Below are positions 2,029 through 26,610 of a stretch of 64,000 bases of DNA, in pieces. The position numbers were made by a program, and so were the translations under genes. Each line of letters opens with the position of its first letter. Position 1 is the first letter of the stretch. Below the pieces are notes generated by a model. That model was given only the letters and a program-made list of their open reading frames with translations. It ran no database searches and had not been told where the DNA came from. The DNA comes from an uncultured Armatimonadetes bacterium (GTDB lineage Bacteria; Armatimonadota; Hebobacteria; Hebobacterales; Hebobacteraceae), in contig OY970296.1 of the NCBI GenBank assembly GCA_963716175.1, positions 3,008,001-3,072,000 on the forward strand, read 5' to 3'.

Positions 2029-2775
2029 ATGGATCCACCGGAGACAGGGAAGACGCCTGACTCGTTGCGGGCAGCGGTGGTTGCTGAGTACGCACCCGAG
2101 TGGCTTGCCTGTAAGGTGTTCAGGGACTGGTCCAGTGGGGCGGCCTTGGGGACGCCGGAGCGTTACGGGCGTATCTCAAAGCTGCGTCGAGCCCGCGTGA
2201 GCTCACTTGCCAAGGCCCTCTCCCAGTGGACGCAAGGACGCTACGGCGAAGCACAGGCTCGCGCGCTCATCGCAGCCTTCGCGGAAGTCTCTCTCCCTGC
2301 GCAGTTGGAAGAAGCCTACTCTCAGGTGATCTGGTCTCTCGTCTCCCAGATTCGCGGTCTGATCGCGGGGAAAGGGCAACTGCGCGCGCTCGTCGCGGCG
2401 GAGAGCGAATCCCTGCCCGCGGTGGCGGTGCTCCAGTCCGAATTCGGCTACGGCCCGGGAACAGCCGCCGTCATCGTTTCCGAGGTAGGTGACATGGCCG
2501 ACTTCCCCAGAGAAGCAGCCTTCGCTACCTACTGTGGGGTGACTCCGCTCAAACGCAGGTCTGGGGTCTCCCGCGGCGCTGCACGCCTCTCGCGCTTCAC
2601 TAACAAGCGGCTGCTGCGAGCGGTCACGCAGGCGGCGCTGACAGCTGCGACCCACCACGCAGAGTCCCGACTCTACTACCAGAAGAAGCTGGCCGGCCGA
2701 TCCGCGCACCAAGACGCTCGCCCTCATCGCGCTCGCGCGGCATCGTGCCCGGCGGCTCTACAAGGTACTGCGACG
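2029..2775 (+). pseudogene. IS110-family transposase fragment (C-terminal part, frameshifted near 2705)
   Basis: GYGPGTAAVIVSEVGD...FATYCGVTP..RSG...NKRLLRA; the C-terminal ALIALARHRARRLYKVL lies in a shifted frame; no N-terminal DEDD domain. Confidence 0.75.
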
Positions 2776-2814
2776 TGCGTCGTTACCGTCGGCGGAGGTC
2801 GCCGCGTAACGTGA

Positions 2815-3563: not shown

Positions 3564-6500
3564 CTACTTGCTACCGTTCGCGGAGGATCGGCTCATACGA
3601 CGCTGCTGAAGCCTTGCGCACTCCTCTTGGATGAGCGCGACTTCTGAGCGCGATAGGCCAAGGCCCTCCCGGAGGACCAGCCCATCCAGCTCGCTCCACA
3701 CGTTGGGATGAGCGCCCGGTTTCCTCAGGGCTTTGTCAAGCCGCGCCAGCTTTGCACTGATCCGGTCTACTACTCTCTGCGGGAACTTCTCCAGGTTTGG
3801 AAGGATCGCAGCTCGCGCGTCACGTGGCTCCAGCTTGAGTAGCCCGCCGCCATAGCCGCGCCCAACAAGCTCCAGGCTAAGCCCAGTGAGCGAGGAGTAG
3901 AACGACGCCAGGTAGGGCTTGACGAGGTCGCGGTGCGTCGTGAAGGACACGTGATGCAGTGTGTTGGTACTGTTGACCTTGGCTTCGTTCATGGTCATGC
4001 GGCACCGCCTGCCCGACATGTAGGTCAGAAAAGCATCAGGGGACGGCGGGTACGGCACGGAGTACCAAGGCCATCGCGTACGGCACTTGTACCTAAGGTG
4101 GACCCCCATTCGGTGTCCCTCGTCCAGGTACCTAGCGAGTTCCTCGTCAGCAGCAATGTCTGCGTCAGGCGGAACTCGCAGCAGCAGGTGCTGTGCATCC
4201 GCTTTCCGCAGTCTCGCCAGGTCCTCGCGCGAGAAGACCGCTCCTGCCACGTGGCTGGCGCTGGTGAGGACGGGCTTCAGCCACCCTCTCCTGATGCCTC
4301 TGGCCCGCGCGGCGCTGGGCGCTAGCGTGTAGAACTTAACATCGCCCGTGACGAGCCCGATGCCCACATTCGCCACACTCGCAAAGGGCAGAGCAAGCCC
4401 GCGTTCGATCAGCGACTCAAGGAGATCAAGCACATCCTGGCTGGTGAGCAGCGCCGTCCATTTCGTCGCTTGCCATCCCTGGCGCGCCTCAGGTGCGGCC
4501 GACGCGCGCTCCAGTGATCCTGCAAGGTCATCTGCCCCGCGCACCTCTGTGCGTCTCATCCCAGCCGCATCGGACGCGCTGGCCAGTAGCAGCAGCACAT
4601 CCTGCTGTTTCTCGAATACTCGGCCCTCGAAGAGCACGAACGACAGGCTTCGAAAGCGTTTCCGCAGGAATCTGCGCACAGGTTCAGCATAGTCTGCGGT
4701 TAGCAGCTCTGTCGGCAGTACCATGGCGAGGCGGCCCTGGGGGCGGAGGAAAGCCGTGGCGTGCAGCAGGTATGGCGCCCATGAACTGGCACTCGGCGAG
4801 AGTCGTGCATCCGGCCCAAGAGTGGCATTAAGGACCTTGTTCGCCGCTTCAAGCGCACGGGCGCGATCCGCTCCTTTGAACCGGTGGGCACGGACATACG
4901 GTGGGTTACCCACAACTGCATCAATACCGTGCGAAGGCCCGACGTCGCCAGGGGATACTGAGAAGAAATCGTCGCGGACCATGTGGTTGGCCGGCAGGCG
5001 CTGCCGTCCTCTCCACAGCTCCGCGAACTGGCGCCAAGCCAGTGCGTCCATCTCAACGCCGTAGACGTGCTGCCCGATGGCGTCGCGGCCAGCACCCAAC
5101 GACGACAGCCTGTCACAAGCCTCACGCAGGAACTCTCCGTCACCAGATGCCGGGTCCAGAACGGCATCTGACCGGTTCCTCACCGCCCAGGAGACCAGGA
5201 ACCTAACTATGCCGGTAGGCGTGGCGACCGCGCCGCGGATCTTCGCCGCTGCGCTTGCGAACAGACTCTCTCCGTCTGACGCCATGCTGTCGGCGGGCGA
5301 CGTGCTAGGCAGGGCAGGTATGGAGACGGTGCGAAGCCGCGGTGCCACCGATGGCGGCACAAACACGTCGGCGAACGGCTCGTAGCGGCGACTCGCCTTG
5401 TAGCTCCTCGCAATGTCGTCCAGGGAGATGGAGCCAAAGAGATCGCGGGTGGGCGGCTGGGCGAACCGGAATGACTTGCGAATGGCGGAGTGGATGATCA
5501 CAAGCGCAGGAGGGACTCCCAGGTCGCGCGCGAGAATCTCTTCCAGATACCGGCTCTGCAGTTGAGCGGACTGGTGCCGAGCAACTCTCCCGGAGGACGC
5601 GTCGCCGTTGGCAACCGAGTTCCCCTCACCATGCTGAGAGGACTCGCGTCGGGGGCGACCGCCGGACAGCCGGGCCGTCAGCGACAGGTGAACTAGCGGC
5701 GCTGATTCACTGGCGGACACGAACAGAGTGCCTGTCTCGAGTTGATTCAGGATGTGGCGGGCCGTCTCATGTCCTGCGATGCGCCGGTAGACCTGTGTGT
5801 CGGTCATGCGCAGGAACACCTTGGTCGATCCCAGCCGCAAGGTCGGATCAGACTCACTGGGACTCGATACGTCCCCGGGCCCTGGGAAGGCTAGCTCCAA
5901 CGCGCGGGTTAGCATTGCCTCCGCCGCCATTCCGCGAGGTGAGTAGATAAAGCCCTCGTATATCCTGCGCTCAAGCTCAAAGAAGTCACGGACTAGCGCT
6001 TCCGTATCCGACCCGGCATCCAGCAGAAGGTTCGGGCCGACCTTGCGGAACGCTTGGGCGAGGGCCACCGGCTCGGGGTAGGGCAGGCCAACCGACCTTG
6101 CAGTGCGGGTGACTCCCTCGAGCGCGTCGACTGACAGAGTCCCGTTCACGAGCAGGTTGAGCACTGCCACCTCGTCGCCGGGTGGCATCAAGGCGGAGTC
6201 CGCTCTACCCGCCCGCGATGGCGCTAGCGCCCCCGCCAGAAGGTCCCTCGCCATCGCGATCTGCGACGCCAGCTCCGGCTGTCCTTCCGAGCGCATGTCC
6301 CTGGAGAACTCGGAGGCCAACCTCCGGGCATCGCCTTGGTGGAACCTGCCTAGGCGCTTCCGGAGGAAGACTTCGGCACCATGCGATAGCGCCGTATGGC
6401 CTATGTCATGTAGTAGTGAAGCCAGGACTATCAGGGTAATAGATCGATCGCTTAGGGCGAGGGCCTCCGCTATGGTCCGGCTCAGTTCGGCCACCGCGAG

Positions 6501-6680
6501 CGAGTGCTCGTATCGCGAGTATGAGCGCTGCAACTTGACGACGTACTCCATCGTGCCGAGGAGCCGGATATCTTTGAGGCGCTGCAGGTACCCGCGATCC
6601 AGCACCGGAGCCAGGCCCATTGCCCGCAGCCTGTTCTCGATGGCCTGCACCGAATCGAGTGGGTGCTGCTCTTCAGCCAT
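3564..6680 (-). CDS. Fusion of an HD-domain phosphohydrolase (SAMHD1/dNTPase-like) and an N6-adenine DNA methyltransferase with C-terminal TRD
   Basis: N-terminus LQRLKDIRLLG, SRYEHSL, LLHDIGHTALSH; C-terminus VLDPASGDGEFL, GVEMD, VVGNPPY, GRGYGGGLLKLEP. Start placed at ATG 6680, overlapping the upstream stop. Confidence 0.85.
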   Translation of the reverse strand: MAEEQHPLDSVQAIENRLRAMGLAPVLDRGYLQRLKDIRLLGTMEYVVKLQRSYSRYEHSLAVAELSRTIAEALALSDRSITLIVLASLLHDIGHTALSHGAEVFLRKRLGRFHQGDARRLASEFSRDMRSEGQPELASQIAMARDLLAGALAPSRAGRADSALMPPGDEVAVLNLLVNGTLSVDALEGVTRTARSVGLPYPEPVALAQAFRKVGPNLLLDAGSDTEALVRDFFELERRIYEGFIYSPRGMAAEAMLTRALELAFPGPGDVSSPSESDPTLRLGSTKVFLRMTDTQVYRRIAGHETARHILNQLETGTLFVSASESAPLVHLSLTARLSGGRPRRESSQHGEGNSVANGDASSGRVARHQSAQLQSRYLEEILARDLGVPPALVIIHSAIRKSFRFAQPPTRDLFGSISLDDIARSYKASRRYEPFADVFVPPSVAPRLRTVSIPALPSTSPADSMASDGESLFASAAAKIRGAVATPTGIVRFLVSWAVRNRSDAVLDPASGDGEFLREACDRLSSLGAGRDAIGQHVYGVEMDALAWRQFAELWRGRQRLPANHMVRDDFFSVSPGDVGPSHGIDAVVGNPPYVRAHRFKGADRARALEAANKVLNATLGPDARLSPSASSWAPYLLHATAFLRPQGRLAMVLPTELLTADYAEPVRRFLRKRFRSLSFVLFEGRVFEKQQDVLLLLASASDAAGMRRTEVRGADDLAGSLERASAAPEARQGWQATKWTALLTSQDVLDLLESLIERGLALPFASVANVGIGLVTGDVKFYTLAPSAARARGIRRGWLKPVLTSASHVAGAVFSREDLARLRKADAQHLLLRVPPDADIAADEELARYLDEGHRMGVHLRYKCRTRWPWYSVPYPPSPDAFLTYMSGRRCRMTMNEAKVNSTNTLHHVSFTTHRDLVKPYLASFYSSLTGLSLELVGRGYGGGLLKLEPRDARAAILPNLEKFPQRVVDRISAKLARLDKALRKPGAHPNVWSELDGLVLREGLGLSRSEVALIQEECARLQQRRMSRSSANGSK

Positions 6681-7953
6681 GGGGTGCTTCTGCCTCGCCG
6701 GATGGTGAGGGGGGCATTGCTTGGCCGACCTCAATGTATGCGCGGTGCTGCCACTCGACCCACCGCGTCGGTGCCACCGGATGGAACCCGCCAGGGCGCG
6801 ATTGGTCCGGCATCTCGATCTCCACACCAGGAAACCAGTTGAAGATGCTGAACTGAAAGGAATCGGCGAGCACTCTGTCCTTTAACCTCCTGGCGAATGC
6901 GATGGTCCGCGTCACGCTACCGTCAGTGTCAAACGGGAAGCCGACTATGAACCCGGCGGAGACGCTGATACCCGCATCCCGAAGCACCGCGAGGGCGTCC
7001 TCCGCCTGGCCCAAGTCAACGCGCTTATGTATGCGCTGGAGAATTTCGGGATCGCCCGACTCCAGCCCTACATAGACTCGGTGGCAGCCTGCCCGCGCCA
7101 TCTCGCGAGCAAGGTCGGCGTTGACTGCGTCAACTCGTGCGTTGCAGAACCACGTCACACTCCGCTGCAGCCCGCGGATGCCTTCACAAAGCCGAGCAGC
7201 ATATTCCCGGTCAGCCATGAAGTCGGGATCAACGAACGATAGTTCGCGGATTCCTCGGTCGCCCGTCAAGTACTCTACCTCAATCAGAACACTCTCGGCA
7301 GACCGCACGCGTCGGCGGCTACCGCTGATCGCCGGTACGCTGCAGAAGGCGCAGCGGTACGGACATCCCCGCTGGGCCTCGATGATAGTGACGGGCGTCT
7401 GGACGCAGTCTGGACTCCAGTAGTGTGAGAAGTCCGGAACCAAGTCCCATGCTGGCATCGGCACGCGCGAGAGTTCGGCCGCCTGTCTCCTCGGGTGCAC
7501 CTGATCCCCCCTGCAGAAGACGCCCGGGATACCCGACAGGCTGCCGCCCGATGACAGCCTCTTACACAGGTCTCGCATGATCGGCTCGCCGTCACCTACT
7601 GCCGCCATATCGAACTCTGCACTCTCGAGGGCGACATCCGGCGCCGCTGTTGGGAGCGGCCCTCCCACGATCACCGCCACGCTGTGTGCAGCCTTCGCAG
7701 CCGCGGCAAAGCGCCGGACCGGTGCGACGGTCAATGTTGACAGGGTCATTCCCACCAGGTCCGGCATCCAGCCGTCGAGACCGGCCAGAACTCCGTTGTC
7801 GTCAACTCCGCGCGCATCCGCATCAACAAGTCGCATGTCAGCGATATCTCTGATGCAGGCGGCAATGTAGAGCAGACCCAAAGGAGGCAGCCGGGTCTCA
7901 CACCTGGTGAAGCCGGCCTGCACGCCCTTCGGCTGGACCAACAGCACATTCAT
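6673..7953 (-). CDS. Cobalamin-binding radical SAM protein (class B methyltransferase-like)
   Basis: B12-domain motifs PPLGLLYIAA, VGGP, GDGE; CxxxCxxC in RGCPYRCAFC; GLESG; FIVGFP. Confidence 0.9.
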   Translation of the reverse strand: MNVLLVQPKGVQAGFTRCETRLPPLGLLYIAACIRDIADMRLVDADARGVDDNGVLAGLDGWMPDLVGMTLSTLTVAPVRRFAAAAKAAHSVAVIVGGPLPTAAPDVALESAEFDMAAVGDGEPIMRDLCKRLSSGGSLSGIPGVFCRGDQVHPRRQAAELSRVPMPAWDLVPDFSHYWSPDCVQTPVTIIEAQRGCPYRCAFCSVPAISGSRRRVRSAESVLIEVEYLTGDRGIRELSFVDPDFMADREYAARLCEGIRGLQRSVTWFCNARVDAVNADLAREMARAGCHRVYVGLESGDPEILQRIHKRVDLGQAEDALAVLRDAGISVSAGFIVGFPFDTDGSVTRTIAFARRLKDRVLADSFQFSIFNWFPGVEIEMPDQSRPGGFHPVAPTRWVEWQHRAYIEVGQAMPPSPSGEAEAPHG

Positions 7954-8927
7954 GCCTTCCAGGTCCTCGCCATTATCGTGAACACAAGCGCCGCCGCGAA
8001 TATCGCACCGGGGATGTACAGCGTCTCAACGCCGCTCTTGCCTGAGAACACAGGAGTGACGTTGGAGAGGAGCCACACGGCCATGCCAATGAAAAGCCCT
8101 GACCCAAGCCACGATATCTGGAGCAAACGCCTGCGCGAAGAGCCGCGGCTCTCCTCGTACCTTTCCAGGACCCGCTTAATCTCGGCTGCGTCCGCCGGTG
8201 TGCGCGCGTTTGCGCGCAGAAAACTCATCATGTCCTCTGCCTGCCGATCGCGTTGACTCTGCACCTTCTCAGCCACTGCCTGTCGCACAGACGGGTCTTC
8301 GGCCTTCAGGCCGCTCTGACGCAGTATCCGCTGCACCTCTGAGTCGAGAGCGATCCGTGACGGCGTCATCTGTGACTCGAACAGATACCGAGAGTCATCT
8401 CGGTCCGGGTAGCCGACGGAGGCCGGTCTCGACAGCGCGACTATAATGAGCTGGCAGATGCTCATGTACGGCCGGATCGACACCGGGAAGCTGTTATGGT
8501 TCGCTAGCTGCAGCACCAGGTTACCGTCCTGTCCGGGGTTTATGAAGTCGTTAGCGAAATGCACCGACAGGCCGAGCCGGGCGAAGCTGCTACGAGCTAC
8601 GATCCGGCCTGCCACTGTCTTGGACAGTACGATACGCTCGAGGGTCGGCGCGAACAGCACCTCACCTGGCTCAAGGGTGACCTCTTCCCCGGAACTTGCT
8701 GGCGGCAGGGCTTCGAAGAGCGCTTGTGTCTGTGCCTCTGGTGCCGCCGCATCAGCCTTCCTGACGTCCTTCTTGTACCTGGTGAACCGGTTTCCGACGC
8801 GGATATCGACAGACGCGAAACGAATCTGCTTGTCCGGCTCGAATGGGTGATGCTGCGGGTCCGTGGAGATGATCTTCACATCGCCGGACGTGATGGCCGC
8901 CTTTATGTCTACGTCCGATAGGTACAT
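7950..8927 (-). CDS. dCTP deaminase (Dcd)/trimeric dUTPase-fold protein with two C-terminal transmembrane helices
   Basis: YLSD, ASVD, LEPGE, RSSFARLGL, INPG, ICQL motifs; C-terminal hydrophobic segments LLQISWLGSGLFIGMAVWLL and LYIPGAIFAAALVFTIMA. Confidence 0.85.
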   Translation of the reverse strand: MYLSDVDIKAAITSGDVKIISTDPQHHPFEPDKQIRFASVDIRVGNRFTRYKKDVRKADAAAPEAQTQALFEALPPASSGEEVTLEPGEVLFAPTLERIVLSKTVAGRIVARSSFARLGLSVHFANDFINPGQDGNLVLQLANHNSFPVSIRPYMSICQLIIVALSRPASVGYPDRDDSRYLFESQMTPSRIALDSEVQRILRQSGLKAEDPSVRQAVAEKVQSQRDRQAEDMMSFLRANARTPADAAEIKRVLERYEESRGSSRRRLLQISWLGSGLFIGMAVWLLSNVTPVFSGKSGVETLYIPGAIFAAALVFTIMARTWKA

Positions 8928-9856
8928 GTCACCCCTCCATTACGCGGCATTGTTCTCTCATTCGGCTCATCGTGAAATGTTACCTGCGGCTACGCCCTTG
9001 TGCGGCTCGCGCACGGATGGCTGGGAGAGAACACATGTGCGCAGGGGGCCTCGGCCATAGCACGGTAGAGAAACCTATACCCGTGCTTTCTCGCGGGGAA
9101 CGCGGCTCAGAGAGGCTACAGCGGCGACGGCCAATGGCCGCCGCCGCTGTCTCTTGCATCGCTCGGGCCTAGCCACCAACGCAGGCGTACGCCCCTGTTA
9201 GCTCCTCCTTCGGCACTGGGATCGAAAAGGACAGGAGCATCGGTAGCCCGTCAGGAATGTAGTCCCGTTTTCCCCGGTGTTTCTGCACCGCATACCGCGA
9301 ACATGGTCCCCCCGATTACTATCGGCTTCACGATACCGGGTTTCGGCATGTTCGAGACGTGGCGGCGGCGGCGCATCCGGACATGACCCGCGGAAAGAAG
9401 CCATAGCTGCGTTTCGTGCCTGCTGTAGCGGTTAGTCCCCCGTGGAACCGCCATAGCCTTGCCTTGACCAGCTTTCCCGGTCTATCGTGGGCAACGCCAT
9501 CTTGCTGGGGGATGAACCCACGTGGAAGGCGCTGGGACCTCGATCTGCTTGGTAATGAAGGCGGTGCTGCTCAGTGTAGGTGTCGGGCGCTTGCAGGACC
9601 GCTAGCGTTAGATCTGTGACTCCCTGGGCTGCCTCCTCTGGCTGATCAGGCGACGAGTTTGCCTGTCAAGGCCCTGTAGGGCCGGCGCGAGAGAGCAGGA
9701 GACCTGTCTGTACACGTCGAGCGTGAACGGACTGCGCTCACGAGATGACGAACCTGGTGGCCGACACACAGTTTCTGGGGAAACGGCTGTTTGTCGCGTC
9801 ATAACATTGGGTATGGCGCCAGCCCAGGGCGGGGGGGAGCGCCGAGCGCGTCTACC

Positions 9857-12800
9857 CTAGCCGATCGGCAGTTCCTGGTCGCCCCGCCGACCCCTTCGCC
9901 GCCTGACCGGTTGCTTAGCAGCATGACCCAGGAGGTCCCATACAAGCTCGTCGATCCCGACACGCTCGGAGGTGAGGATGCGTCTGACCTCCGAACGCTG
10001 ACGTCCTATGTCGCCTTGCGTGATCTGCGGGGCCAGCGCGGCGACTGCTCGGTGGCATTCCTTGCTCAGCGTCGCGAGCCTTTCGTGGGTCGCGTTGGCC
10101 GCATCGTAGCGGGGAATAGGGAGCACCTCGAACGGGAGCCGTGTTATGTCACGTTCGCCCCATTGTCCACTTGTTTGGTACGGCTTTATCGCCTGGTTCA
10201 CAGCACTGGAGTTTAGCAGTGAGCAGAGGTAGTGCGCCTCATCTTCGTCCTTCGTCTCGTAGTAGTAGGTGACCATGTCCGCCGCAAATCCGTTCACGCG
10301 CAGTCCGCCAGCATCCAGCGCCCTGTTGGCGTTCACGACGCATGCCGTGAGGTGGGTGCCGGACTTGTTGTACAGAAGCTTATAGCGCCCCTTGAGAACC
10401 TGGCAGGTGAGGGTATGCTGGTAGTCGAGGCGATTGTAGATCGTCCTCTCCGTAGTCGTTTTCTTGTTGTCAGCCCAAGCGGCTTCTGTCTTCGCTAGCC
10501 ACTCGGCCAGGGCCGGGTACCCCGCGGAAAGGGCGGCCTCTCGAGTAAGGAGGCCCATGTTCGTGCCTCTCCTTATGGGCTGCAGCGGGAGGACGACCAG
10601 GTCCAAGGTGAGGTGACCGAACGGCAGCAGATGCTTCCCGAGGAGAGTCGCGTAGAGGAAATCCGCCTCCACCGGGCCCTCGAAGCGCATGTCCCTCCAG
10701 GGCGTCTTGGCGTCCTTCTGAATGTCTGGGGTGGTCTCCACGTATGGTCGTTCCGGGCTAACTGTTCCCCACTCGTCTCTAGCGGCCGGCCGAACAAACC
10801 AGAAGCAACGCGGGAATATCGAGGCGCCTGCCCTGAGCGAACTCCAGTAATGGCTTGCTGCCGTCTGTGGGAGGGGCGAGTAGCTCTCCTGATCCATTCG
10901 AAGGATCGGTCTAGCGAGATCCCATACCAGGTTCCTTGCTGGCAGGCTGCCGGTGGCCCTGAGCATCGGGATGTTGGCGGCAAGCGTCTTGCCTTTCGTC
11001 CGCACAAGCAGGCACGCGGGGACGTTGAACAGAGGGGCGATGCCCTCGAGGTCCACCCCGCGTGTGAAGCCGAGGCGCTGGAAGGTGAGGTGTTGTTTGG
11101 CGCCGGTCAGCGTGCTCTTGGGCATGACGAACGCGAGGGTACCTTTCGGGCCCACGTATCTTCCGAAGGAGAACTCGTAGAAAAGCGTAGAGGTGTCCAT
11201 CACCGTGAACAGCTTCACATCTGACTTATCGAGCAAGCCATGCCGGAAGACAAGCTTCTTGACCTGCGCCTGGTACCGGGCGTCCTGGATGTAACGGTAG
11301 GCCAGCCATGGTGGGTTTCCGACGACGAAGTTGAACCGCCTGTTGGAGAGGTAGATGGGGCGGTAGGCGTTGCGGAGGATGAAACCCCAGACAGTGTCCC
11401 GGTTCTGCCGAACAAGCCGGATCATCAGCTTGAGGTTATCCTGCCAGAGGGCAAGCCCCATGGAATCGCCATGGCGCCACTTCCTCGCCACGTACTCGCG
11501 GAATCCGGGTGTCAAGACTCGTTCGCCCTCGGGCCTGCGTGCGTAATCGCACATCGTGTCAATGACGTCGTCAAGAAGGATGGGCGACTTGGCCATGCTG
11601 GCTGGTATATGAAAGTACTGCTCGACTTCTTCTCTGCGGCGCCCAGTGAAGCGCTCCTCGGTACCGACAAGGATCCTGATGGGCGCGCTACCTTGGCGGC
11701 TCTCCTCCTGCAACAAAGCGTCCGCCATGTAGACGGGGATGGTGATGTTCCCCTTGTGCTGCTTCAGGTCGGGAGCAAGCGCGAGGGCGTAGTTGACCCG
11801 GGAAATCGTGACAGCGAGGGGATGGACGTCCACCCCCATGATGTTCCTCTGGGCGTAGGTCGCAAGAAGCGTGCCGCGCCTGCGAGCCCGCCGCGCTTGT
11901 CGAATAGCCACGAAGAGGAAAGTGCCCGATCCACAGGCGGGGTCCAAGACACTGCCCTTGCCTTTGTAGCCCGCCTCGGTTAAGGTCAGTTCGGCCAGCC
12001 AGTCAGGGGTGTAGAACTCGCCAAGGTCGTGTCGAGTCTCGGGGTCCACTAGACCCTGGTATAGCTCCTTGAGGAGGTCCTCGTTGATCTTGGCCGGGCT
12101 GTAGATGTACAGGTGTTGGAGCATGCCGTTGAGCAACTGGACGGCGTCGTTTCTCACGGCATCGCTCAGCACCCACGCGAAGAAGTCTTCTTCGGCAAGG
12201 TTGAGCAACCCGTTGCGCCGGAACACCTCGCCGTCAACGATCTCCGTGAGGGACCGAGCGCCTCGCGGATGGCGTTTGAACAGGGCCAGGTAGGCCAGCA
12301 CCTTGGCGAGGAGGGAGAGGTAGGTGTGCCGGATGAACAAGTCCTGAGTCCCAACCTCACGGCTGCCGTAGACCTTAGCCAAGAGGCTGTTCCATTCGGC
12401 GAACTTTACCTGGGTAGTCCCATCCTCCTTGAGGTGCTCCAACATGCCAAGCAGGCTGGCGGAGGCGGCTGAGAAGACGGCGCTGTCCGCGCCGAACCTC
12501 CTTAGAACATCGGCGGAGGTGGGCGCGAGGTTCTTTTGCGAGAATAGGAAACTGTCAAACCAGAGGAGAGCTGCGTCCGGAGCGTCAGCTTCGAGGCGCT
12601 GCAGATCAACAGGCTGCCCGACCGGCCGCAGGGTGTCTTCGTGCAGCGCGTATACCTCGAACGTGATTCCATCGGTGATGATGCCGAAGCCGTGTTTCGG
12701 CACCTGAGGTGATCTCAGGTACTTGCTGAGTTCACGCTTGCCTGTATCCCTCTCGGCCTCGAGATCACGCTTGAACTCGAAGACAAGATCGCGATAGAGC

Positions 12801-13000
12801 GCGTCGATCCTGCCACGCAGCTTAAGGGCCTCGACGCCCCTCTCGATGCTGATTTCTTCTGGCTCTATACCAAAGGCACGTTCGATGAACCCAAGGAACA
12901 GATGCCGACGGTAGTCGTGAGCCTGTCTATCCTTCCGCGCTCTTTCGGCGACTCGGACGTACTTCCCCAGTTCCTCAAAGAAGCGGTCGCGTCTCGCCAC
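9857..13000 (-). CDS. Type IIG restriction-modification enzyme (REase-MTase-TRD in one polypeptide)
   Basis: N-terminal PD-(D/E)xK-like IDALYRDLVFEFK; GEFYTPDWLA, DPACGSGTFL, VVGNPPW. Confidence 0.85.
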   Translation of the reverse strand: MARRDRFFEELGKYVRVAERARKDRQAHDYRRHLFLGFIERAFGIEPEEISIERGVEALKLRGRIDALYRDLVFEFKRDLEAERDTGKRELSKYLRSPQVPKHGFGIITDGITFEVYALHEDTLRPVGQPVDLQRLEADAPDAALLWFDSFLFSQKNLAPTSADVLRRFGADSAVFSAASASLLGMLEHLKEDGTTQVKFAEWNSLLAKVYGSREVGTQDLFIRHTYLSLLAKVLAYLALFKRHPRGARSLTEIVDGEVFRRNGLLNLAEEDFFAWVLSDAVRNDAVQLLNGMLQHLYIYSPAKINEDLLKELYQGLVDPETRHDLGEFYTPDWLAELTLTEAGYKGKGSVLDPACGSGTFLFVAIRQARRARRRGTLLATYAQRNIMGVDVHPLAVTISRVNYALALAPDLKQHKGNITIPVYMADALLQEESRQGSAPIRILVGTEERFTGRRREEVEQYFHIPASMAKSPILLDDVIDTMCDYARRPEGERVLTPGFREYVARKWRHGDSMGLALWQDNLKLMIRLVRQNRDTVWGFILRNAYRPIYLSNRRFNFVVGNPPWLAYRYIQDARYQAQVKKLVFRHGLLDKSDVKLFTVMDTSTLFYEFSFGRYVGPKGTLAFVMPKSTLTGAKQHLTFQRLGFTRGVDLEGIAPLFNVPACLLVRTKGKTLAANIPMLRATGSLPARNLVWDLARPILRMDQESYSPLPQTAASHYWSSLRAGASIFPRCFWFVRPAARDEWGTVSPERPYVETTPDIQKDAKTPWRDMRFEGPVEADFLYATLLGKHLLPFGHLTLDLVVLPLQPIRRGTNMGLLTREAALSAGYPALAEWLAKTEAAWADNKKTTTERTIYNRLDYQHTLTCQVLKGRYKLLYNKSGTHLTACVVNANRALDAGGLRVNGFAADMVTYYYETKDEDEAHYLCSLLNSSAVNQAIKPYQTSGQWGERDITRLPFEVLPIPRYDAANATHERLATLSKECHRAVAALAPQITQGDIGRQRSEVRRILTSERVGIDELVWDLLGHAAKQPVRRRRGRRGDQELPIG

Positions 13001-13702: not shown

Positions 13703-15895
13703 TCAAGAGCGCCACTGGAGGTACGAGATGATGCCGGCGGCTACTGTGGCGATGCCCATGATCCAGAACCAGATTCGGACGAATCCCAACGGGAGGGCGA
13801 GCGCTAGCCCGCATGCAAGGGCTCCGCCCACCTCATAGAGGCTCTTCGCCCATCGTGGCCAGTGAACCCACGGAAGCAGCAGGTAGCCAATGAGAATACC
13901 ACACGATATGGCTAACCATCCTGCCCATTTGGCAACGCCGAGTGTCCTGGCCAGCCTAAGCTCCGCACTCCTGGCGCGGTCCGCCTCTTTCGTTTCGCCA
14001 CTCTGCGCTTCGGTGAGCATCGTCTCTAGACTCACCTTCTCCGTTGCCAGATCTTCCTGCATTGCCTCCGCTGCCTGCCTTCGCTGGCGCTCATGGGCCA
14101 ACTCGCCTTCGAGTTCCTGTAAGTGCAGATCTCTGACTCTCGTCTGCCCCTTGAGCCGGAGGTACTCCTGCTCCGCCAGTTCCTGGGCCCGTTTCGCGGC
14201 CCATGTCTGCTGCTGCAGTAGACTCAGAGAGCGCGCAATTGCTGCGTCTACCTGGTGATCACGCGCATCTTCAGACGCAGGCGCCCGAAGGCTAGCTGCG
14301 AGGCGCTCATCAACCATCGTGAGAACGGCGGCCTGTGCGGCGACCGCCTCATCTATTCCTGCTTCGATCGCATAGCGGTCGATGCGAGCACAGACGCGTT
14401 GCGCAGCCTCCGACGGAAGGCGAGCGATCGTCCCGATGAAGGGGCAAGCAACCAACTGGGCGAAAGCCCTATCGTAGTCGGCGGTCCTGGGGAGCGCCCA
14501 TCGCGTCATCTGCATGCAGTGGTCCGGATGGATACAGAATGGGATCTCGTTGCCGTCTTCTCGCCGTCGAATCCAATCATACCGTCTGAGTTTCCCGTCA
14601 CATGTTACGAACCATGCGCGAGCTCGCGCAAAGGATGTGGTGTCCCCGCGGAGTCTGAGGATGAGCAGTCGGTGGAATGCATCGTGGGTGATGATCTCGC
14701 CGTGCACGCCCGGGTCGCGTGCCGCCAGGAGCACAGCGCCTTCCTCCTGGGGAAGCGAAGGTGTGGCCATCGCGTCATCGTGCGGGTTATCGTCGACCAT
14801 TACGCCGAGTTGAGGAAGCAGCGCGTCGACGTTCCGAGCTCTGGCTGCAAACTCATCGACGCTGACCCCCGTACGCGCGTACTCGTCATAGTAGAGGCTG
14901 ACGAAGTCTTGCTCCGATGAGGCCCTGGCGGCAAGAGCGGCGAGTGTGCGTGACGCAATAGGATGCGCCCTGATCCGCTCAATGTTCGCCCGCAGCGATG
15001 TCCGCAACTCCTTGAGCGTTCTCTGCGAGACAAGGAGCTTGCCCCCAATCTGTCTGATAACATCTGCGAGCGTCCGGATCTGGAAGAAGTGCTGGGGGCC
15101 CTGCAGGTTGAGCAGACGGTACAGGACGTTCGTGTCAAGGTAGAAGAGGGTGCCCTGGAAAACGCCCCTGACGAGAGATGAGCACTTCGGATCAATGTGA
15201 GCAGTATGTACGATGCAGGCGTTGTCGAGTAAGCGGGTCAAGTAAAGGGCACGGTCACCTTCGGCGTCCAGCCAGAATGCCGTGAGTGTCTCGCGCCGCA
15301 TGCCCATCAGGTGCTGATCCACCGGCGGCAGGGAAGAGAAGATGCCTTCGATCGTTGGTGCCAGCTTCCCTTCGCTCGGCGGCGGCCCCGCGCCTAGCAG
15401 CGCCTGGGTCTGGGCACCGTAGCGGAGTAGCACTTGCCGGTTGAACGCCTGCTGGTCAGTGAGGAGTCGAGACAGTTCCTGGTCAGTGAGCGACGGGTAC
15501 TGCTCCTGCAGGTGGATGTGCCAGGCATCCATGACACGTCCCTCGAGTCGGTCCGCTTCTTCGATTGCCTGCTCGAGAGCACGTCGGTGCTCGGGGGTCA
15601 GGTTGTACTTCGGATCTCGGCGCCCTGAGTGGCTAATGCGCCGTCCTCGCCGCTTGCTGACTGACCTCAGAACGTGGCGGATCTCTGCAGGCTCAAATCG
15701 CAGTCCGAAGTCCGCCTCGATCGCCGAAGAGATCTCGCTTGGGCTGTAGGACTCATCGCTAGGGAGGCTCCAGAGAGCCCTCTCCACGAACCCCATTGTG
15801 ATCTGGTCAGCAAGTGGTGTTCCGGGCTCGAACGCCCCGATGTGGAGAAGCCTGCGAATAGCTTCATAGCGAGCAGGTCCGCCTAAGGCTGTCAT
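13703..15895 (-). CDS. Hypothetical protein: PIN-like domain, coiled coil and C-terminal TM helices
   Basis: FYLDTNVLY, HDAFH, WFVTCD acidic motifs typical of the PIN fold; E/Q/R-rich coiled coil; 2-3 hydrophobic helices at the C-terminus. Confidence 0.6.
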   Translation of the reverse strand: MTALGGPARYEAIRRLLHIGAFEPGTPLADQITMGFVERALWSLPSDESYSPSEISSAIEADFGLRFEPAEIRHVLRSVSKRRGRRISHSGRRDPKYNLTPEHRRALEQAIEEADRLEGRVMDAWHIHLQEQYPSLTDQELSRLLTDQQAFNRQVLLRYGAQTQALLGAGPPPSEGKLAPTIEGIFSSLPPVDQHLMGMRRETLTAFWLDAEGDRALYLTRLLDNACIVHTAHIDPKCSSLVRGVFQGTLFYLDTNVLYRLLNLQGPQHFFQIRTLADVIRQIGGKLLVSQRTLKELRTSLRANIERIRAHPIASRTLAALAARASSEQDFVSLYYDEYARTGVSVDEFAARARNVDALLPQLGVMVDDNPHDDAMATPSLPQEEGAVLLAARDPGVHGEIITHDAFHRLLILRLRGDTTSFARARAWFVTCDGKLRRYDWIRRREDGNEIPFCIHPDHCMQMTRWALPRTADYDRAFAQLVACPFIGTIARLPSEAAQRVCARIDRYAIEAGIDEAVAAQAAVLTMVDERLAASLRAPASEDARDHQVDAAIARSLSLLQQQTWAAKRAQELAEQEYLRLKGQTRVRDLHLQELEGELAHERQRRQAAEAMQEDLATEKVSLETMLTEAQSGETKEADRARSAELRLARTLGVAKWAGWLAISCGILIGYLLLPWVHWPRWAKSLYEVGGALACGLALALPLGFVRIWFWIMGIATVAAGIISYLQWRS

Positions 15896-17097: not shown

Positions 17098-20000
17098 CTA
17101 CATCGGCAACTGAAACGCCCTCGCGATGTACACCGCCATCTGGTCGCGGGTGACGGGGTCGGCCGGTTTGTAGGTGCCATCCTCATACCCCTTCACCACG
17201 TTGTGGTCCACGCAGGCCTTGATCGCTACACCTGACCAGTAGCCGGCCGGCACATCCGGGAAGAGCTGCGGGGCGGTGTTGAGGGCGTCGCTGAGCGTGA
17301 CCCATCCCTTGGCGCGGGCGATGAACACCGCCATCTGGCCCCGGTCCACCACCAGCGTGGGCTGGTAGTGAGTGGCGTCATAGCCCTGCACCACACCCTG
17401 GGCCACCGCATACTCGACGTACTTGTAGGCCCACTGATCAGTGGGGACGTCATCGGGGAAGCTGGCGGTGGCCGGACCTGTGGGCACGTTGGCATCGCCC
17501 CCGGCTAGAGCGCGGCTTACGTAAACCGCCATCTGGTCGCGACTGACCGGCTCGGTGGGCTTGTAAGTGCCATCGGAGTAGCCCTGCACGATGCCGGCGT
17601 CAACCAGCGAAGCAATAGCCGATTCGGCCCAGAAACCGGCTGGGACGTCAGTGAACTGGGGTGGGAGCACAAGGTCAACTGTGGTGGTCTGCCCCGCGGT
17701 AATCACCACACCGGTCTGAGTGGCAGCGCCGTGCCCATGCGCAGTCGCCTTGACGGTCGTCCCCGTGGTCTCGGCGACGTCAATGGTGAAGGTCCCATTG
17801 GCATCGGCCGCGGTGTATAGATTCCCGCCGATCCAGATATCGGCGTAAGGAATGGGACCGCCGGTGGTAGCATCGGTCACAGCACCACTGACGGTGCCGA
17901 AGCTGCGTATGTGAGGCTCCCACATGCGGATAGCCCCCACGGAATCGCTTCCCGCCTGACTGGCAGTGACTACGAAACGCCCGTTGGCGCTCATGTCAGG
18001 AGGATCCCCACCTATTCCCCCTTCGACGAAGGCGTTATAGAGCACGACGCTCCCGATGCCCGTACGGTCTCGGACCACGATGTACCCGGTCCCGCCTCCA
18101 TACGTCCCTGGCACTACGTAGTAAAACGCGACCATCTGGCCATCCGCGCTCACCGCGACCGGGTAGGACGGATGGTACAGGCTGTATGGGGTTGCCGGCG
18201 CGTCGCCGGGCATCAGGCTGGCGAACTCCGTGGTCCCGGCCACCCGGTCACGCAGGTAGACATTACCATGACCGATGGGGCTGAAGTACGTATTGTAGAT
18301 GGGGACCAGATCATTGGCGTCAGAGCAAAAGGCCACGAAACGACCATCATGGCTCATCATCGCCACGCCGGACCAGTTGTCAGGCGCGACGATTTGCTGC
18401 GAACCGTCCTCGGCGAGGCTTACGCGTTCAGTTGTCGCTGTGGTCAGGTCGTGGAGGAAGGTGTCGATGATCCCGTTGGTGTCCCCTGCTACCAGGTTCG
18501 TCGCGGCCGATGAGAAGGCTACATAGCGGCCGTCGGCACTGATGCAGGGATCCGTTGATGGGCCGTCGGCCTGGGCCCCGTTGCTGGCCACGCTGACGCG
18601 CACTGTGCGTTTGGTCAGGAGATTGTGCACGAACACATCCGTCTGCCCGTTGGTGTCGTCCGGGACCAGGTTCGTGGCATCAGAACTGAAGCAGACATAG
18701 CGGCCGTTGGCGCTGATCGTGCCGTGGGCAATGCTATCCGCCGGCGTGCCGTCACTGGCAGCGCTGGCCAAGGTTAGGCTGGACGTCTCGCGGTCGTACA
18801 CGTAGGTCTGCCAGACTCCGGGCGGCACGTCAGGAGGCAGGACCACCGGTGAGTACGCCACATACCGCCCGTTAGCGCTGACTGAGGCGGCGGAGCCGCC
18901 GATGGCCTGAGAACCGTCCTCCGTCTTGCTGATCAGTTCGATCTGCCCAGTCGATCGGTCCAGGAGGAAGACGTTTCCCGTCTGCCCCGGTGGCAGCGGG
19001 ACCAAGTCTGTGGCGCTGGAGGCGAAGACAACATAGCGCCCGTCCGGGGTGATCACGGGGCTGTAGGAGTTCCCGTTCGGGAAAGTATTCCCGCTCATGG
19101 AGTGCACGATGATCTCCGGGTGCACGGCCCAATCCGATATAGTCCAGGGCTGCAGCGGGAAGTCAATCCCTGAGGTCGTCTGCTGATCCACGACCTCGAC
19201 GTTCGAGACTTCACCAGCGTCATAGCCTCGCATCACGGCGGTGATGGTCCAGGTCCCCGGCCAGGCGGCAAGGGCATACGTGCCGTCAGCGGCACTTATG
19301 GTCTCACCCTGGCCGCCATAGACGGTAACGCCCCCGAGCGGCTGAAGGGTGACGGCATCTCGGACGGTTCCCGTGACCGTGCCCCTGGCGATCTGGAGTG
19401 CGAAATCCACTGTCGTGGCTGCGCCCGACACCACCACGACGCTGTCCATCGTCAATGATCCGAAACCGGCGCCGCTGGCAGTCACGGAGTAGGTGCCTTC
19501 CGGCACGACCGGCAGCAGATAGCCTCCGCTGCCATCTGTGATCGCCCTCAGGTAGCTATAGGTGACTGACCCGCCAATGACGGGGTTGCCGCTGCCGGCG
19601 TCAGTGACTGTCCCTTGGATCAAGCCGATGCCCTGCGCGACATCGCGCACCTCAATCTGCTGGTTGGCGGCCACCCCGTTCTCGGTGACGATGTGATGGT
19701 TGGGGAAGACCACTTGCACCGCCACCGTAGTGGCGGTGCCGAGGCCGAACTGGCCTATGGGCTCATTCTGGCCCATGAACCCCGACCCCCCGTCAACCAT
19801 GCGCGTGAGGGTACGACCCGGGGGGAAGGAGAGGTCGTTGTCCAGATTCACCAGGATGCGGGCACCCAGCGCGTCCCGCACCGGACTGCCGTCGGTGGCG
19901 TCGCCGGTGGCGCTGGTGAGGGCGCGCACCCGCAGCCAGTGCCCATCGCCAGGCGAACCGAGGTTGTGGTAGAGCAGGGATGTGTCGCTGTCGGAGGCGC

Positions 20001-23901: not shown

Positions 23902-23956
23902 CGCACACCCCCCTGATGCAGCAATACCGGACCCCCTCGAAGCGGCCCGTGGCGAC

Positions 23957-23985
23957 AGTATAGCGCGGCGCCAGGTGTAGGACAA
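23957..23985 (-). promoter_or_regulatory. Sigma70-type promoter of the second SLH gene
   Basis: TTGTCC-17bp-TATACT on the minus strand. Confidence 0.5.
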
Positions 23986-26055: not shown

Positions 26056-26216
26056 GCACGCCTCCTCTGGTGGATGGTTGCGGCATGACATGAATCACTT
26101 CAAGCGGCGAACAAGTCCAGGCCTTTGTGCAAGTATTCTGTGGGGTGGGCCCTAGTGCGGGTATTTCGTATCCCCTCGATTTCGGGCCAGGATGGCTCTA
26201 GGAGCCACGAGAAGAG

Positions 26217-26610
26217 TGGAGTGGGCCGATAAGCCGAGTTTTGGCGCGACATTCGCCCGATACGTCAGGTTATGTCGCGAGCGTCCATCTATCTAGGGCT
26301 GCGATCGCTCGCAGCCTCAAGCGGCCAACCCGGGGCTGATGCGGCGTCGGGCCAACGCTGGTCCCCAACCGGGGACTCGCCCCCTATTTGGCCTTGCTCC
26401 GGGCGGGGTTTGGCCAGCCGGTGTGTCTCCACGCCGCTGGTGCGCTCTTACCGCACCATTTCACCCTTGCCCAGCTCGCGCCGGGCGGTATGTTTCTGTG
26501 CCACTTTCCGTCGGGTCGCCCCGCCTGGGCGTTACCCAGCGCCCTGCCCTGTGGAGCTCGGACTTTCCTCGTTCCGCCATCGGCGAACCGCGGACGCTTG
26601 GCCCACTCCA
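26217..26610 (-). ncRNA. rnpB: RNase P RNA (bacterial type A-like)
   Basis: GAGGAAAGTCCGAGCTCC near the 5' end, GGAAAGTGGCACAGAAA, GGTAAGAGCGCACC, AAAACTCGGCTTAT near the 3' end; P1 TGGAGTGGGCC/GGCCCACTCCA. Confidence 0.95.

Follow-up and report, generated by a model that had tools for sequence, protein, structure and literature searches.

A Dcd-fold protein with replaced catalytic residues and a hydrophobic helical tail, encoded with a radical SAM enzyme and an HD-methylase fusion

The best explanation of the Dcd-like gene in the window (the whole 64,000-nucleotide stretch of Armatimonadetes DNA that was analyzed), to which we assign a probability of about 45%, is that it encodes a catalytically dead, membrane-tethered subunit that binds pyrimidine nucleotides and belongs to a new three-gene cassette. 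The protein is probably the nucleotide-sensing or anchoring part of an undescribed conflict or DNA-marking system and not a housekeeping protein, because its catalytic residues are lost, it has a membrane-anchoring tail and it is encoded in a rare cassette with a radical SAM enzyme and a fusion of a dNTPase-like domain to a methylase (Table 1).

Table 1. Features of the Dcd-like gene, its operon partners and a neighboring gene in the window.
Feature	Coordinates	Strand	Basis
Putative pseudo-enzyme of Dcd fold with C-terminal helical linker and 2TM hairpin, 325 aa	7950..8927	-	ORF list, Pfam, PDB phmmer, Foldseek
Dcd (dUTPase-superfamily) beta-fold domain, aa 1 to ~175	8403..8927	-	AF2 pLDDT ~90 over most
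RSSFARLGL nucleotide-binding motif, aa 112-120, kept	8568..8594	-	phmmer against E. coli RSSLARLGL
INPGQDGNLVLQLAN, aa 129-143, site of replaced catalytic residues	8499..8543	-	phmmer alignment and clade counts
Shine-Dalgarno-like GGAGGGG, 4 nt ahead of the Dcd-like ATG	8932..8938	-	sequence read
C-terminal lid segment, Dcd core to linker helices, aa 173-195	8343..8411	-	clade conservation; AF2 pLDDT <50 at 178-190
Helical linker, aa 192-268	8124..8354	-	AF2 helices 192-205, 212-240 and start of 247-294
Hydrophobic helix 1, aa ~269-291, RRR before	8055..8123	-	Kyte-Doolittle (KD); inside AF2 helix 247-294
Hydrophobic helix 2, aa ~302-322	7962..8024	-	KD; AF2 helix 301-324
Radical SAM enzyme with B12-binding domain, 426 aa	6673..7953	-	Pfam Radical_SAM 7.5e-26, B12-binding 5.8e-14
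SAMHD1/dGTPase-like HD region, aa 1-460 of fusion protein	5301..6680	-	Pfam HD 1.9e-09
Gamma-type N6-adenine DNA methyltransferase with Eco57I-like C-terminal domain, aa 461-1038	3564..5300	-	Pfam N6_Mtase, Eco57I, M_Eco57I_C
MmeI-like type IIG restriction-modification enzyme, neighbor (context only)	9857..13000	-	PADLOC REase_MTase_IIG 1.8e-86; Pfam MmeI_N, MmeI_Mtase

The Dcd-like ORF matched the Pfam family DCD (PF22769) with E = 6.3e-34, and phmmer aligned its product to E. coli Dcd (1xs1) with E = 1.7e-22 and ~33% identity across 190 residues. The top Foldseek matches of the AF2 model were the Dcd structures of M. tuberculosis and E. coli (E ~1e-17, TM scores to target of 0.77-0.91). Alignments and models were made with the sequence P0001, whose sole difference from the ORF in the window is S instead of L at residue 165. 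As a preliminary description had claimed, the motif RSSFARLGL is kept and both acidic residues are replaced within a Dcd fold: INPGQDGNLVLQLAN occupies the place of IDPGWSGCIVLEFYN in E. coli Dcd, pairing N130 with D128 of the IDPG motif, Q133 with W131 and Q140 with the catalytic E138. This residue numbering is consistent with the PDB titles of the E138A, E138D and H121A variants of Dcd. Among 80 genome loci, all 58 canonical short Dcd genes had D and E at the two columns. The Dcd-like protein scored 131.8 bits against TIGR02274 (dCTP_deam, EC 3.5.4.13), which exceeds the cut-off of 92.8, so annotation pipelines would label it a dCTP deaminase; no PADLOC model matched it.

Dcd is a soluble protein of ~190 aa that ends at the lid, whereas the window protein continues into a helical and hydrophobic extension of 130 aa. 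In the AF2 monomer (mean pLDDT 77.6), the Dcd fold reached residue ~172 and was followed by a low-confidence lid (178-190) and by helices at residues 192-205, 212-240, 247-294 and 301-324. Kyte-Doolittle averages over 19 residues had maxima of 1.61 (269-287), which is borderline for the first hydrophobic helix, and 1.95 (302-320). Hydropathy by itself discriminates weakly, with at least two such windows in 139 of 2,000 composition-preserving shuffles. Paired segments were nonetheless conserved, two or more with KD of at least 1.3 being present in 86 of 113 long proteins of the NW/NY type and in 4 of 6 of the window type. The modeled helices, the hydropathy and this conserved pairing support the earlier proposal that a helical linker and two TM helices follow the Dcd core. 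Searching the ESM Atlas with the tail (190-325) gave no usable match.

Complex modeling supported the trimer that had also been proposed, through the Dcd core only: ipSAE was 0.91 (0.89, 0.91 and 0.91 in individual runs) compared to 0.00 for the best control, and 20 of 30 solved pairs attained the mark in calibration, as did 1 of 23 single chains. Contact agreement was at least 58%, pLDDT of the partner at least 68, and Q140 of one copy lay against A116, R117 and G119 of the next. Confident contacts were all within residues 1-173, with none for residues 190-325, and the pass may reflect memory of, or likeness to, Dcd trimers because these have already been solved. Most likely, the protein forms the usual cytoplasmic Dcd trimer, anchored in the inner membrane through its C-terminal helical hairpin.

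Homologs with Asn in place of the Asp (the Asn-type clade) formed one cluster in the tree, separate from canonical Dcd, and accounted for 146 of the best 150 matches in an exhaustive profile search. The change from Asp to Asn is fixed (N130 in 158 of 158 members), and the Glu column at position 140 was Q in 113, E in 18 and another residue in 27, including T (10), M (5), P (4) and I (3), with V and A also tolerated. Nucleotide-contacting residues were still conserved across the clade; counts of conserved residues out of 158 were 158 for P131 and for N143, 156 for R117, 155 for Q159, 155 for R or K at position 112 and 147 for S113, and in the lid region 148 for Y173, 140 for Y181, 133 for S190 and 121 for D195. 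Judged from these sequences, the catalytic Glu is dispensable in the clade while the residues that would hold a pyrimidine nucleotide, and the lid, are conserved, a pattern that fits the binding-only domain suggested earlier. The window protein has the residues that mark the clade (Asn, R117, N143, Q159, Y173 and Y181) as well as the extension after the lid, and it groups with P0002-P0005, L081 and P0097 (Asn, Gln133, Gln140). Position 133 was W, Y or F in 147 of 158 members and Q in only 6, which make up the window's subclade. L081, a 43%-identical relative, is cut off by a contig end, and its upstream genes were uninformative.

The preliminary description further held that acid loss goes with the tail. 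Counts agree with this: among the 80 genome loci, 58 were short D/E forms and 22 were of the Asn type, 21 of these long, and among 246 sequences the D/E proteins were short in 61 of 61 cases and the Asn-type proteins had at least 260 aa in 154 of 181. Essentially one clade is involved, however, and the association would reflect a single ancestral change, not repeated co-segregation. Tailed homologs that keep Glu, which had been named as evidence against a pseudo-enzyme, were found in part, in that 17 long tailed proteins retain it, all of them with Asn at the Asp position. Tails vary within the clade between 2TM, long helical, EAD11 (P0144, 2.5e-10) and PNP nucleosidase (P0155, PNP_UDP_1, 4.3e-15) forms. 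Taken with the fixed Asn, the dispensable Glu and the conserved pocket and lid, such variation is expected if the domain binds a ligand as an input and is coupled to interchangeable modules for output or docking.

Dcd enzymes lose activity when the Glu is changed to Ala or Gln, and hydrolysis of the dUTPase type needs the Asp. We consider it very improbable that the window protein is still an enzyme, in which Asn and Gln support a slow or different reaction (for example, on the product of the radical SAM enzyme), or a nucleotide-depleting toxin. T, M, P, I, V and A all occur at position 140, the Asp is Asn in all 158 members, and the PDB titles of 1xs4, 2hxd and 3gf0 describe Glu-to-Ala or Glu-to-Gln variants made for crystal complexes, although Glu is kept in 18 of the 158, TIGR02274 scores above its cut-off and defense by nucleotide depletion has a precedent (bioRxiv 10.1101/2021.04.26.441389).

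The operon with the radical SAM and HD-methylase genes is the most informative context of the gene and was missed by the preliminary description. Gene order is Dcd-like, radical SAM, HD-methylase: the radical SAM ATG overlaps the Dcd-like stop codon by 4 nt (ATGA), and the HD-methylase ATG, chosen by alignment to the orthologue in an archaeal MAG contig (L118), overlaps the radical SAM stop by 8 nt. By this arrangement, the three genes are translationally coupled. A scan for promoters and terminators gave no promoter candidate, and its single terminator-like hit, located within the HD-methylase gene, was in the range of shuffles.

The second gene is predicted to encode a class B radical SAM enzyme, with an N-terminal B12-binding domain and a CxxxCxxC core motif that reads CPYRCAFC. 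Its best PDB match was AprD4 (6fd2, 1e-33), annotated in NCBIfam as belonging to the radical SAM diol-dehydratase family, and OxsB (5ul2) matched at 1.3e-8 (37 bits); none of the NCBIfam equivalogs compared (HpnJ, AprD4, ApyD, BchE, OxsB and others) reached its cut-off, the best scoring 129 bits against 577.6. The HD region of the third gene carries the RYEHSL, LLHDIGH..SH and D..G..R motifs of SAMHD1-type dNTP triphosphohydrolases and matched 2hek (7.7e-10), 9mr6 (1.3e-9) and SAMHD1 (~2e-5) by phmmer against the PDB. NCBIfam dGTPase models gave 15-30 bits on this gene compared to cut-offs of 152-511, with 30.1 against 393 for the best and 15.2 against 400 for antiphage_dGTPase. The PADLOC model MTase_II matched aa 526-1080 of the longer GTG reading with 7.4e-102. 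Both the H..HD..D metal-site motifs and the DPxxGxG and NPPY motifs of a gamma N6-adenine methyltransferase were present in 14 of 14 fusion homologues, and with these motifs intact the HD-methylase partner looks active.

Oxetanocin is made from deoxyadenosine phosphates by OxsB, a B12-type radical SAM enzyme, and OxsA, an HD phosphohydrolase. By analogy, the cassette may be a nucleotide or DNA modification pathway and not an immune system, with the radical SAM enzyme altering a nucleotide or base, the HD domain trimming phosphates, the methylase marking DNA and the Dcd-fold protein holding or channeling substrate at the membrane. The parallel gene pair, the match to OxsB, the diol-dehydratase family of AprD4 and the intact HD and methylase motifs are consistent with such a pathway. 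Nonetheless, we regard it as unlikely: OxsB is weakly similar, a membrane hairpin would be superfluous in a substrate carrier, relatives lack the gene, and the cassette lies on a mobile island that also contains an integrase and an IS110 transposase and borders a type IIG restriction enzyme. In L118, the cassette adjoins genes for a ClpP-like SDH protease and a HigB/HigA-like pair.

L118 carries the same cassette with its genes rearranged. Its radical SAM protein is 57% identical and its HD-methylase 46% identical to those of the window, but its Dcd-fold 2TM protein, which also lacks the Glu, is a different one. That protein has 277 aa, a Pfam DCD score of 35.6 bits (cut-off 27), Ala at the Glu position and two strong hydrophobic helices (KD 2.64 and 2.02); it shares 22% identity with the window protein, and its AF2 model was of low confidence (pLDDT 57.9). 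Its clade has K, V, A, A and T at positions 112, 113, 114, 117 and 159 and is thus without the RSS, Arg and Gln contacts, so canonical nucleotide binding is not a shared requirement of the cassette. Both types have the same fold, lack the Glu and carry a helical linker and a 2TM hairpin. That two such different proteins serve one cassette, sharing these features, points to a ligand-independent anchor or scaffold, a dead, stable trimeric platform that would hold both partner enzymes at the inner membrane (for example, at entry sites of foreign DNA) without sensing or membrane damage. A mere scaffold, however, has no need of the nucleotide contacts and lid that are strongly conserved in the window's clade; the L118 type also retains a conserved pocket-region sequence of its own, and the clade includes PNP nucleosidase and EAD11 fusions without a membrane anchor. 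We therefore rate the scaffold as rather unlikely and prefer a nucleotide-binding subunit.

L118-type relatives and HD-methylase relatives were found on contigs of identical size and source in five cases (9445, 29379, 6868, 11073 and 162332). These coinciding sizes suggest four more cassettes, with two cassettes verified by sequence. Tailed relatives of ~30% identity in the 80 genome loci had no radical SAM or HD-methylase neighbors, so the link to the cassette is specific to small subclades. Radical SAM relatives at 23-38% identity (L119-L126) lay in unrelated contexts according to their ORF lists, and tblastn found no HD-methylase there.

The cassette is located in a low-GC island (GC 0.61-0.64, compared to 0.65-0.73 at 36-60 kb) that contains the integrase and the IS110 transposase and adjoins the type IIG enzyme; no homologue of that MmeI-like enzyme was found beside the cassette in L118. 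The Dcd-like gene is the sole Dcd-family match in its 4.56-Mb genome. Among 60 relatives searched there was no full-length match, with same-family and same-class matches only at E of at least 1e-5; in the same family, 3 of 14 relatives had matches, all weak (E of at least 8.7e-5). An ordinary housekeeping dCTP deaminase with an odd extension, as automatic names and the TIGR02274 score would have it, is hardly credible given the replacement of both catalytic acids, the lack of the gene in same-family relatives, the island location and the coupling to non-housekeeping genes.

In viral contigs, the Dcd profile found only short canonical Dcd- or dUTPase-like matches (five loci), and a search for the HD-methylase found none. 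Plasmids contained the full-length HD-methylase fusion (at least 80% coverage) in 0 of 84 records and the tailed Dcd-like protein in 0 of 83. A PADLOC tally of neighboring genes was unspecific, because neighbors of the canonical Dcd control shared the top families (mad3, mad8, AriA and PD-T4-6); the only differences were Type I methylase matches and the number of matched families (355 compared to 55). A DUF1653 search of the window's own genome gave no match, as did its control search. Among sequencing runs, none of RNA was listed as containing the sequence, and two DNA runs from a single study contained small shares (0.13-0.14).

For the nucleotide-binding subunit that we prefer, we infer ligand binding, gating, a membrane effect and an immune role. 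The sites between subunits of the trimer would accommodate a pyrimidine (deoxy)nucleotide, normal or altered, and there the window's subclade would place Gln instead of an aromatic residue beside the sugar. Closure of the lid could be relayed along the continuous linker helix into the hairpin in the membrane, which might either perturb the membrane or control the radical SAM and HD-methylase partners there. A broader proposal, which we consider a long shot, is that Asn-type proteins are widespread, overlooked pyrimidine-nucleotide receptors of prokaryotic conflict systems and that the window encodes a new three-component system. Its radical SAM enzyme would alter the sugar or base of a nucleotide, much as viperin or OxsB does, the HD-m6A methylase would couple DNA methylation state to nucleotide hydrolysis, and the dead Dcd trimer would read the altered nucleotide through its remodeled sugar pocket (Gln for Trp, Tyr or Phe), with lid closure leading to a membrane event.

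Public sources that name clade members call them either 'deoxycytidine triphosphate deaminase' or 'dCTP deaminase'. Counting only the Asn-type sequences in the best 150 matches, no fewer than 146 clusters at 50% identity cannot be ordinary dCTP deaminases, and their misnaming distorts metabolic reconstructions of dTTP synthesis. The cassette could reveal new nucleotide chemistry or a new coupling of DNA methylation state to nucleotide pools.

Compared to Dcd and bifunctional Dcd:dUTPase (1xs1 of E. coli, 2qlp/4a6a of M. tuberculosis and 1ogh of M. jannaschii), the window protein has the same fold, RSSxARLG motif, His, Asn, Gln, lid and predicted inter-subunit sites. It differs in the changes from Asp to Asn and Glu to Gln, in Gln for the aromatic residue after the DPG motif, in its 130-residue helical and 2TM extension, in its operon with radical SAM and HD-methylase genes and in not being conserved among the host's relatives. 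Effectors of CBASS and Pycsar have nucleotide-binding domains fused to transmembrane helices. The likeness lies in a cytoplasmic nucleotide-binding domain followed by TM helices and in exchangeable effector modules on one sensor, but the sensor fold here is Dcd and not SAVED or a cNMP-binding domain; Pfam found no cyclase gene in the operon, and PADLOC had no match for the Dcd-like protein. The cassette resembles OxsB/OxsA and AprD4 in that a radical SAM enzyme with a B12-binding domain co-occurs with an HD phosphohydrolase, and it differs from OxsB/OxsA in adding a methylase fusion and a Dcd-fold membrane protein, with no equivalog cut-off reached. With SAMHD1/dGTPase defense by dNTP depletion (bioRxiv 10.1101/2021.04.26.441389), it shares the HD motifs of the third gene, whereas the similarity is limited to ~100 residues and the HD region is fused to a predicted complete N6-adenine methylase.

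The combination of radical SAM enzyme, dNTPase-like HD/m6A-methylase and membrane Dcd matched none of the defense models searched. A literature search found no paper on a Dcd-fold protein with TM helices, on inactive Dcd in defense or on a radical SAM/HD/methylase defense cassette; neither dUTPase nor dCTP appears in the main text of PMC7159879 or PMC8195603, whose supplements on domain architectures may bear on the EAD11 fusion. A related case is that of KomB, a HAM1-like nucleotide-binding subunit of the Kongming defense that acts together with a SIR2 NADase as a soluble filament, in an immune complex that responds to an unusual deoxynucleotide, dITP (PMC13454610; bioRxiv 10.1101/2024.12.20.629578). 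The likening to KomB made at the outset holds as an analogy but not in its particulars: KomB has a HAM1/ITPase fold and not that of Dcd/dUTPase, the window protein has a membrane hairpin, and there are no KomA- or KomC-like genes in the operon, Pfam finding no HAM1, SIR2 or adenosine deaminase in the four genes (DCD, radical SAM/B12, HD with N6_Mtase, and MmeI-like). What the two would share is the reuse of a house-cleaning nucleotide-enzyme fold, with ligand sensing by the window protein as our inference. The fixed Asn, free Glu position, conserved pocket and swappable tails point to the dUTPase-superfamily fold as a new input domain of conflict systems, which would extend the idea, shown for KomB, that immune receptors can be derived from house-cleaning nucleotide enzymes.

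The Dcd-like protein clearly belongs to the Dcd/dUTPase fold. Its ATG lies 4 nt behind a GGAGGGG site, and the product matches Pfam DCD (E = 6.3e-34), scores 131.8 bits against TIGR02274 (curated cut-off, 92.8) and aligns with E. coli Dcd 1xs1 (phmmer, E = 1.7e-22). The AF2 model has a mean pLDDT of 77.6 (core, ~90), with M. tuberculosis and E. coli Dcd as top Foldseek matches (E ~1e-17); alignments and models have as their first row the database sequence P0001, which matches the window ORF except at residue 165. The preliminary description had reported an intact substrate-binding motif followed by a segment with both acidic residues amidated, and the phmmer alignment confirmed this: RSSFARLGL pairs with RSSLARLGL of 1xs1 and INPGQDGNLVLQLAN with IDPGWSGCIVLEFYN, placing Asn130 on D128, Gln133 on W131 and Gln140 on E138, in a numbering consistent with the PDB titles of the E138A, E138D and H121A variants. 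The protein is not a housekeeping deaminase. Past the core, the model contains a low-confidence lid (residues 178-190) and four helices (192-205, 212-240, 247-294 and 301-324), the last two of which hold hydrophobic stretches (Kyte-Doolittle maxima, 1.61 and 1.95). Hydropathy alone is weak evidence for a two-TM tail because 139 of 2000 shuffles also yield two such windows; the paired segments are seen again in relatives of the protein.

A word-indexed search returned four full-length relatives (48-63% identity) and a group at ~30% identity that is likewise tailed, and an exhaustive profile search covering 1.84 billion representatives gave 12479 matches at E ≤ 1e-3, of which 541 reached E ≤ 1e-30. 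The Asp column is occupied by Asn in 146 of the best 150 profile matches. Across 158 Asn-type sequences, Asn130, Pro131 and Asn143 are invariant, Arg117 (156/158) and Gln159 (155/158) are nearly so, and Ser113 (147/158), Tyr173 (148/158) and Tyr181 (140/158) are strongly conserved. The Glu column varies freely (Q, 113; E, 18; T, 10; M, 5; P, 4; I, 3). With pocket and lid conserved and this column variable, selection therefore retains the pocket and lid, not the catalytic acid.

The expected co-segregation of residue loss with the tail was borne out as an association: among 246 sequences, all 61 canonical proteins with Asp and Glu were short and 154 of 181 Asn-type proteins were at least 260 aa long, in a sample biased by the Asn-type profile and the patterns (including the NPG motif) with which it was drawn, outside which tailed Asp/Glu proteins could exist. 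It was not borne out as repeated events, as a core-domain FastTree placed the canonical proteins in one cluster and the Asn-type in another, and the co-segregation therefore mirrors essentially one ancestral change. Some Asn-type proteins are of canonical length, for example that at locus L032 (187 aa, Asn plus Glu), and 27 database entries of this type are short; these may be truncated sequences, members without a tail, or forms between canonical Dcd and the tailed clade. Many of the short entries originate on metagenome contigs that are themselves short.

The proposed trimer was supported by a three-copy complex model, which scored 0.91 (runs, 0.89, 0.91 and 0.91), whereas none of three controls exceeded 0.00, with a partner pLDDT of at least 68 and contact agreement of at least 58%; 20 of 30 solved pairs attained the mark in the calibration, as did 1 of 23 single chains. 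All confident contacts fall within residues 1-173, so that the model bears on the core and not on the packing of the tails. Because Dcd trimers have already been solved, the pass indicates likeness to them and may reflect memorised structures. In the model, Gln140 of one copy adjoins Ala116, Arg117 and Gly119 of another, predicted contacts that correspond to the Dcd arrangement of inter-subunit sites.

Within the cassette, the Dcd-like stop and the start of a 426-aa protein share an ATGA overlap, and the stop of the latter overlaps the ATG of a 1038-aa protein by 8 nt. The 426-aa protein, which has a B12-binding domain at its N terminus and a CxxxCxxC motif, is a radical SAM enzyme; its nearest solved relatives are AprD4 (1e-33), then 9ccb, TsrM, OxsB and TokK, and no named NCBIfam equivalog came near its cut-off. 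The third product fuses an HD domain to a complete gamma-type N6-adenine methylase (DPxxGxG, NPPY and an Eco57I-like C-terminal domain). The HD motifs (RYEHSL, LLHDIGH..SH and D..G..R) are those of SAMHD1/dGTPase-type phosphohydrolases, the PDB matches (2hek, 9mr6 and SAMHD1) being confined to ~100 residues, and both motif sets are intact in all 14 fusion homologues.

At slightly below even odds (roughly 0.45), we favour the reading that a catalytically dead, membrane-tethered Dcd trimer with predicted pyrimidine-nucleotide binding acts as the input or control subunit of this three-gene cassette. In Dcd enzymes the lid closes over the nucleotide; here it runs straight into the linker helix, which would offer a simple route from nucleotide binding to the membrane hairpin. 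In dUTPases the aromatic residue at the Gln133 position packs on the deoxyribose; it is Gln in 6 of the 158 Asn-type sequences, namely the window's subclade. This replacement of a sugar-contacting aromatic may point to another sugar or to an altered nucleotide, perhaps the radical SAM product.

Used to scan species-representative genomes, the radical SAM protein recovered a single orthologue (57% identity), carried by L118, a Bathyarchaeia MAG contig of 9.4 kb, where it is followed by an HD-methylase, 46% identical to the window's across its whole length, and by a 277-aa protein. The latter is a Pfam DCD member (35.6 bits; cut-off, 27) with two strongly hydrophobic terminal helices (KD, 2.64 and 2.02), only 22% identical to the window's protein. 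In it the Asp is retained, the Glu column holds Ala, and the equivalents of RSS, Arg117 and Gln159 are missing; the 12 sequences of its own family are well conserved over this region. Because these canonical nucleotide contacts are gone, L118 favours the alternative that the trimer is a membrane scaffold that does no nucleotide sensing; this is the main evidence against a sensing role, and we nonetheless regard the scaffold as rather unlikely. Flanking the cassette in L118 are a gene for a ClpP-like serine protease of the SDH type and a Gp49/HigB-like gene paired with an HTH (HigA-like) one.

The HD-methylase fusion has 13 homologues in a collection of 5.8 billion proteins. For five, a relative of the L118 Dcd-like protein has the same source and exact contig size (9445, 29379, 6868, 11073 and 162332), which we take as co-location of the two genes, verified in sequence only in L118, where the radical SAM gene was also seen. 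No partner was found for the other eight with the queries used, the ~30%-identical tailed relatives had no radical SAM or HD-methylase neighbours in their genomes, and the cassette was not found in the viral contigs and plasmids searched. The window's genome held no other Dcd-family match, and none of 60 relatives gave a full-length match to the Dcd-like protein.

The cassette region is mobile-looking. The gene for an MmeI-like type IIG enzyme, perhaps a separate defence gene of this island, lies ~930 nt upstream of the cassette, an IS110-type transposase is nearby, and the GC content here is 0.61-0.64 compared to 0.65-0.73 further along the window. A tyrosine integrase beside rnpB, together with the lower GC in 1-24 kb, suggests an integrated island with its boundary at rnpB. 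A 730-aa ORF that lacks Pfam matches at E ≤ 0.001 separates the type IIG enzyme from the S-layer proteins, two large paralogous surface proteins that each combine FG-GAP/VCBS repeats and carboxypeptidase-regulatory-like domains with three SLH domains.

Coordinates of the cassette, its surroundings and related loci (window positions unless a contig is named)
Feature	Position	Strand	Remark
ORF with IS110/IS116/IS902-family transposase C-terminal domain	2029-2814	+	just past the cassette's last gene, opposite strand
HD-methylase fusion	3564-6680	-	
B12-type radical SAM enzyme	6673-7953	-	
Dcd-like ORF	7950-8927	-	325 residues
MmeI-like type IIG restriction-modification enzyme	9857-13000	-	1047 aa; directly upstream of cassette
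730-aa ORF	13703-15895	-	
Surface protein	17098-21117	-	
Surface protein	21295-23985	-	
Tyrosine integrase ORF	24170-26098	-	~115 nt from RNase P RNA gene
Class A RNase P RNA gene	26214-26609	-	282.9 bits
Cassette-flanking gene	L118:926-1990	-	
Cassette-flanking gene	L118:8492-9217	+	
DUF1653 gene	L007:9032-9430		adjoins Dcd-like gene; Pfam 1.7e-22
DUF1653 gene	L132:565-897	+	27 nt upstream of helical-tail Dcd-like gene (L132:924-2030), Dorea MAG; 1.5e-18

Most Asn-type members carry a helical linker and two hydrophobic segments. In one subclade (Asn, Phe, Gln) the tails are helical, ~170 residues long and without a clear TM segment, and single representatives fuse the domain to a PNP_UDP_1 phosphorylase/nucleosidase domain (P0155, 551 aa; 4.3e-15) or to an EAD11 effector-associated domain (P0144; 2.5e-10). 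A small DUF1653 (PF07866) gene adjoins the Dcd-like gene in 6 of 23 clustered tailed loci (L001, L002, L004, L006, L007 and L066; Pfam-verified in L007 only) and is fused to it in P0119. Such neighbours span distant phyla (Solirubrobacterales, Tautonia, Treponema and Dorea), which suggests a conserved two-gene module; the window's genome gave no DUF1653 match in a search run without a positive control. The combination of one constant domain that looks ligand-binding, C-terminal modules that can be exchanged and a small recurrent partner is, we infer, typical of conflict systems. The cassette could also be a modification pathway and not an immune system, a reading that we hold to be rather unlikely. 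A crude PADLOC neighbour tally was discarded as a defence signal, as the neighbours of canonical Dcd gave identical top families.

The literature searched, which did not extend to the supplements of EAD papers, held no description of such Dcd-like proteins, and public sources naming clade members use 'dCTP deaminase'. KomB of the Kongming system has a HAM1-like fold and serves as the subunit that makes an effector complex respond to dITP (PMC13454610). It is the closest known case in concept to the Dcd-like protein, although the two differ in fold, partners and membrane tail.
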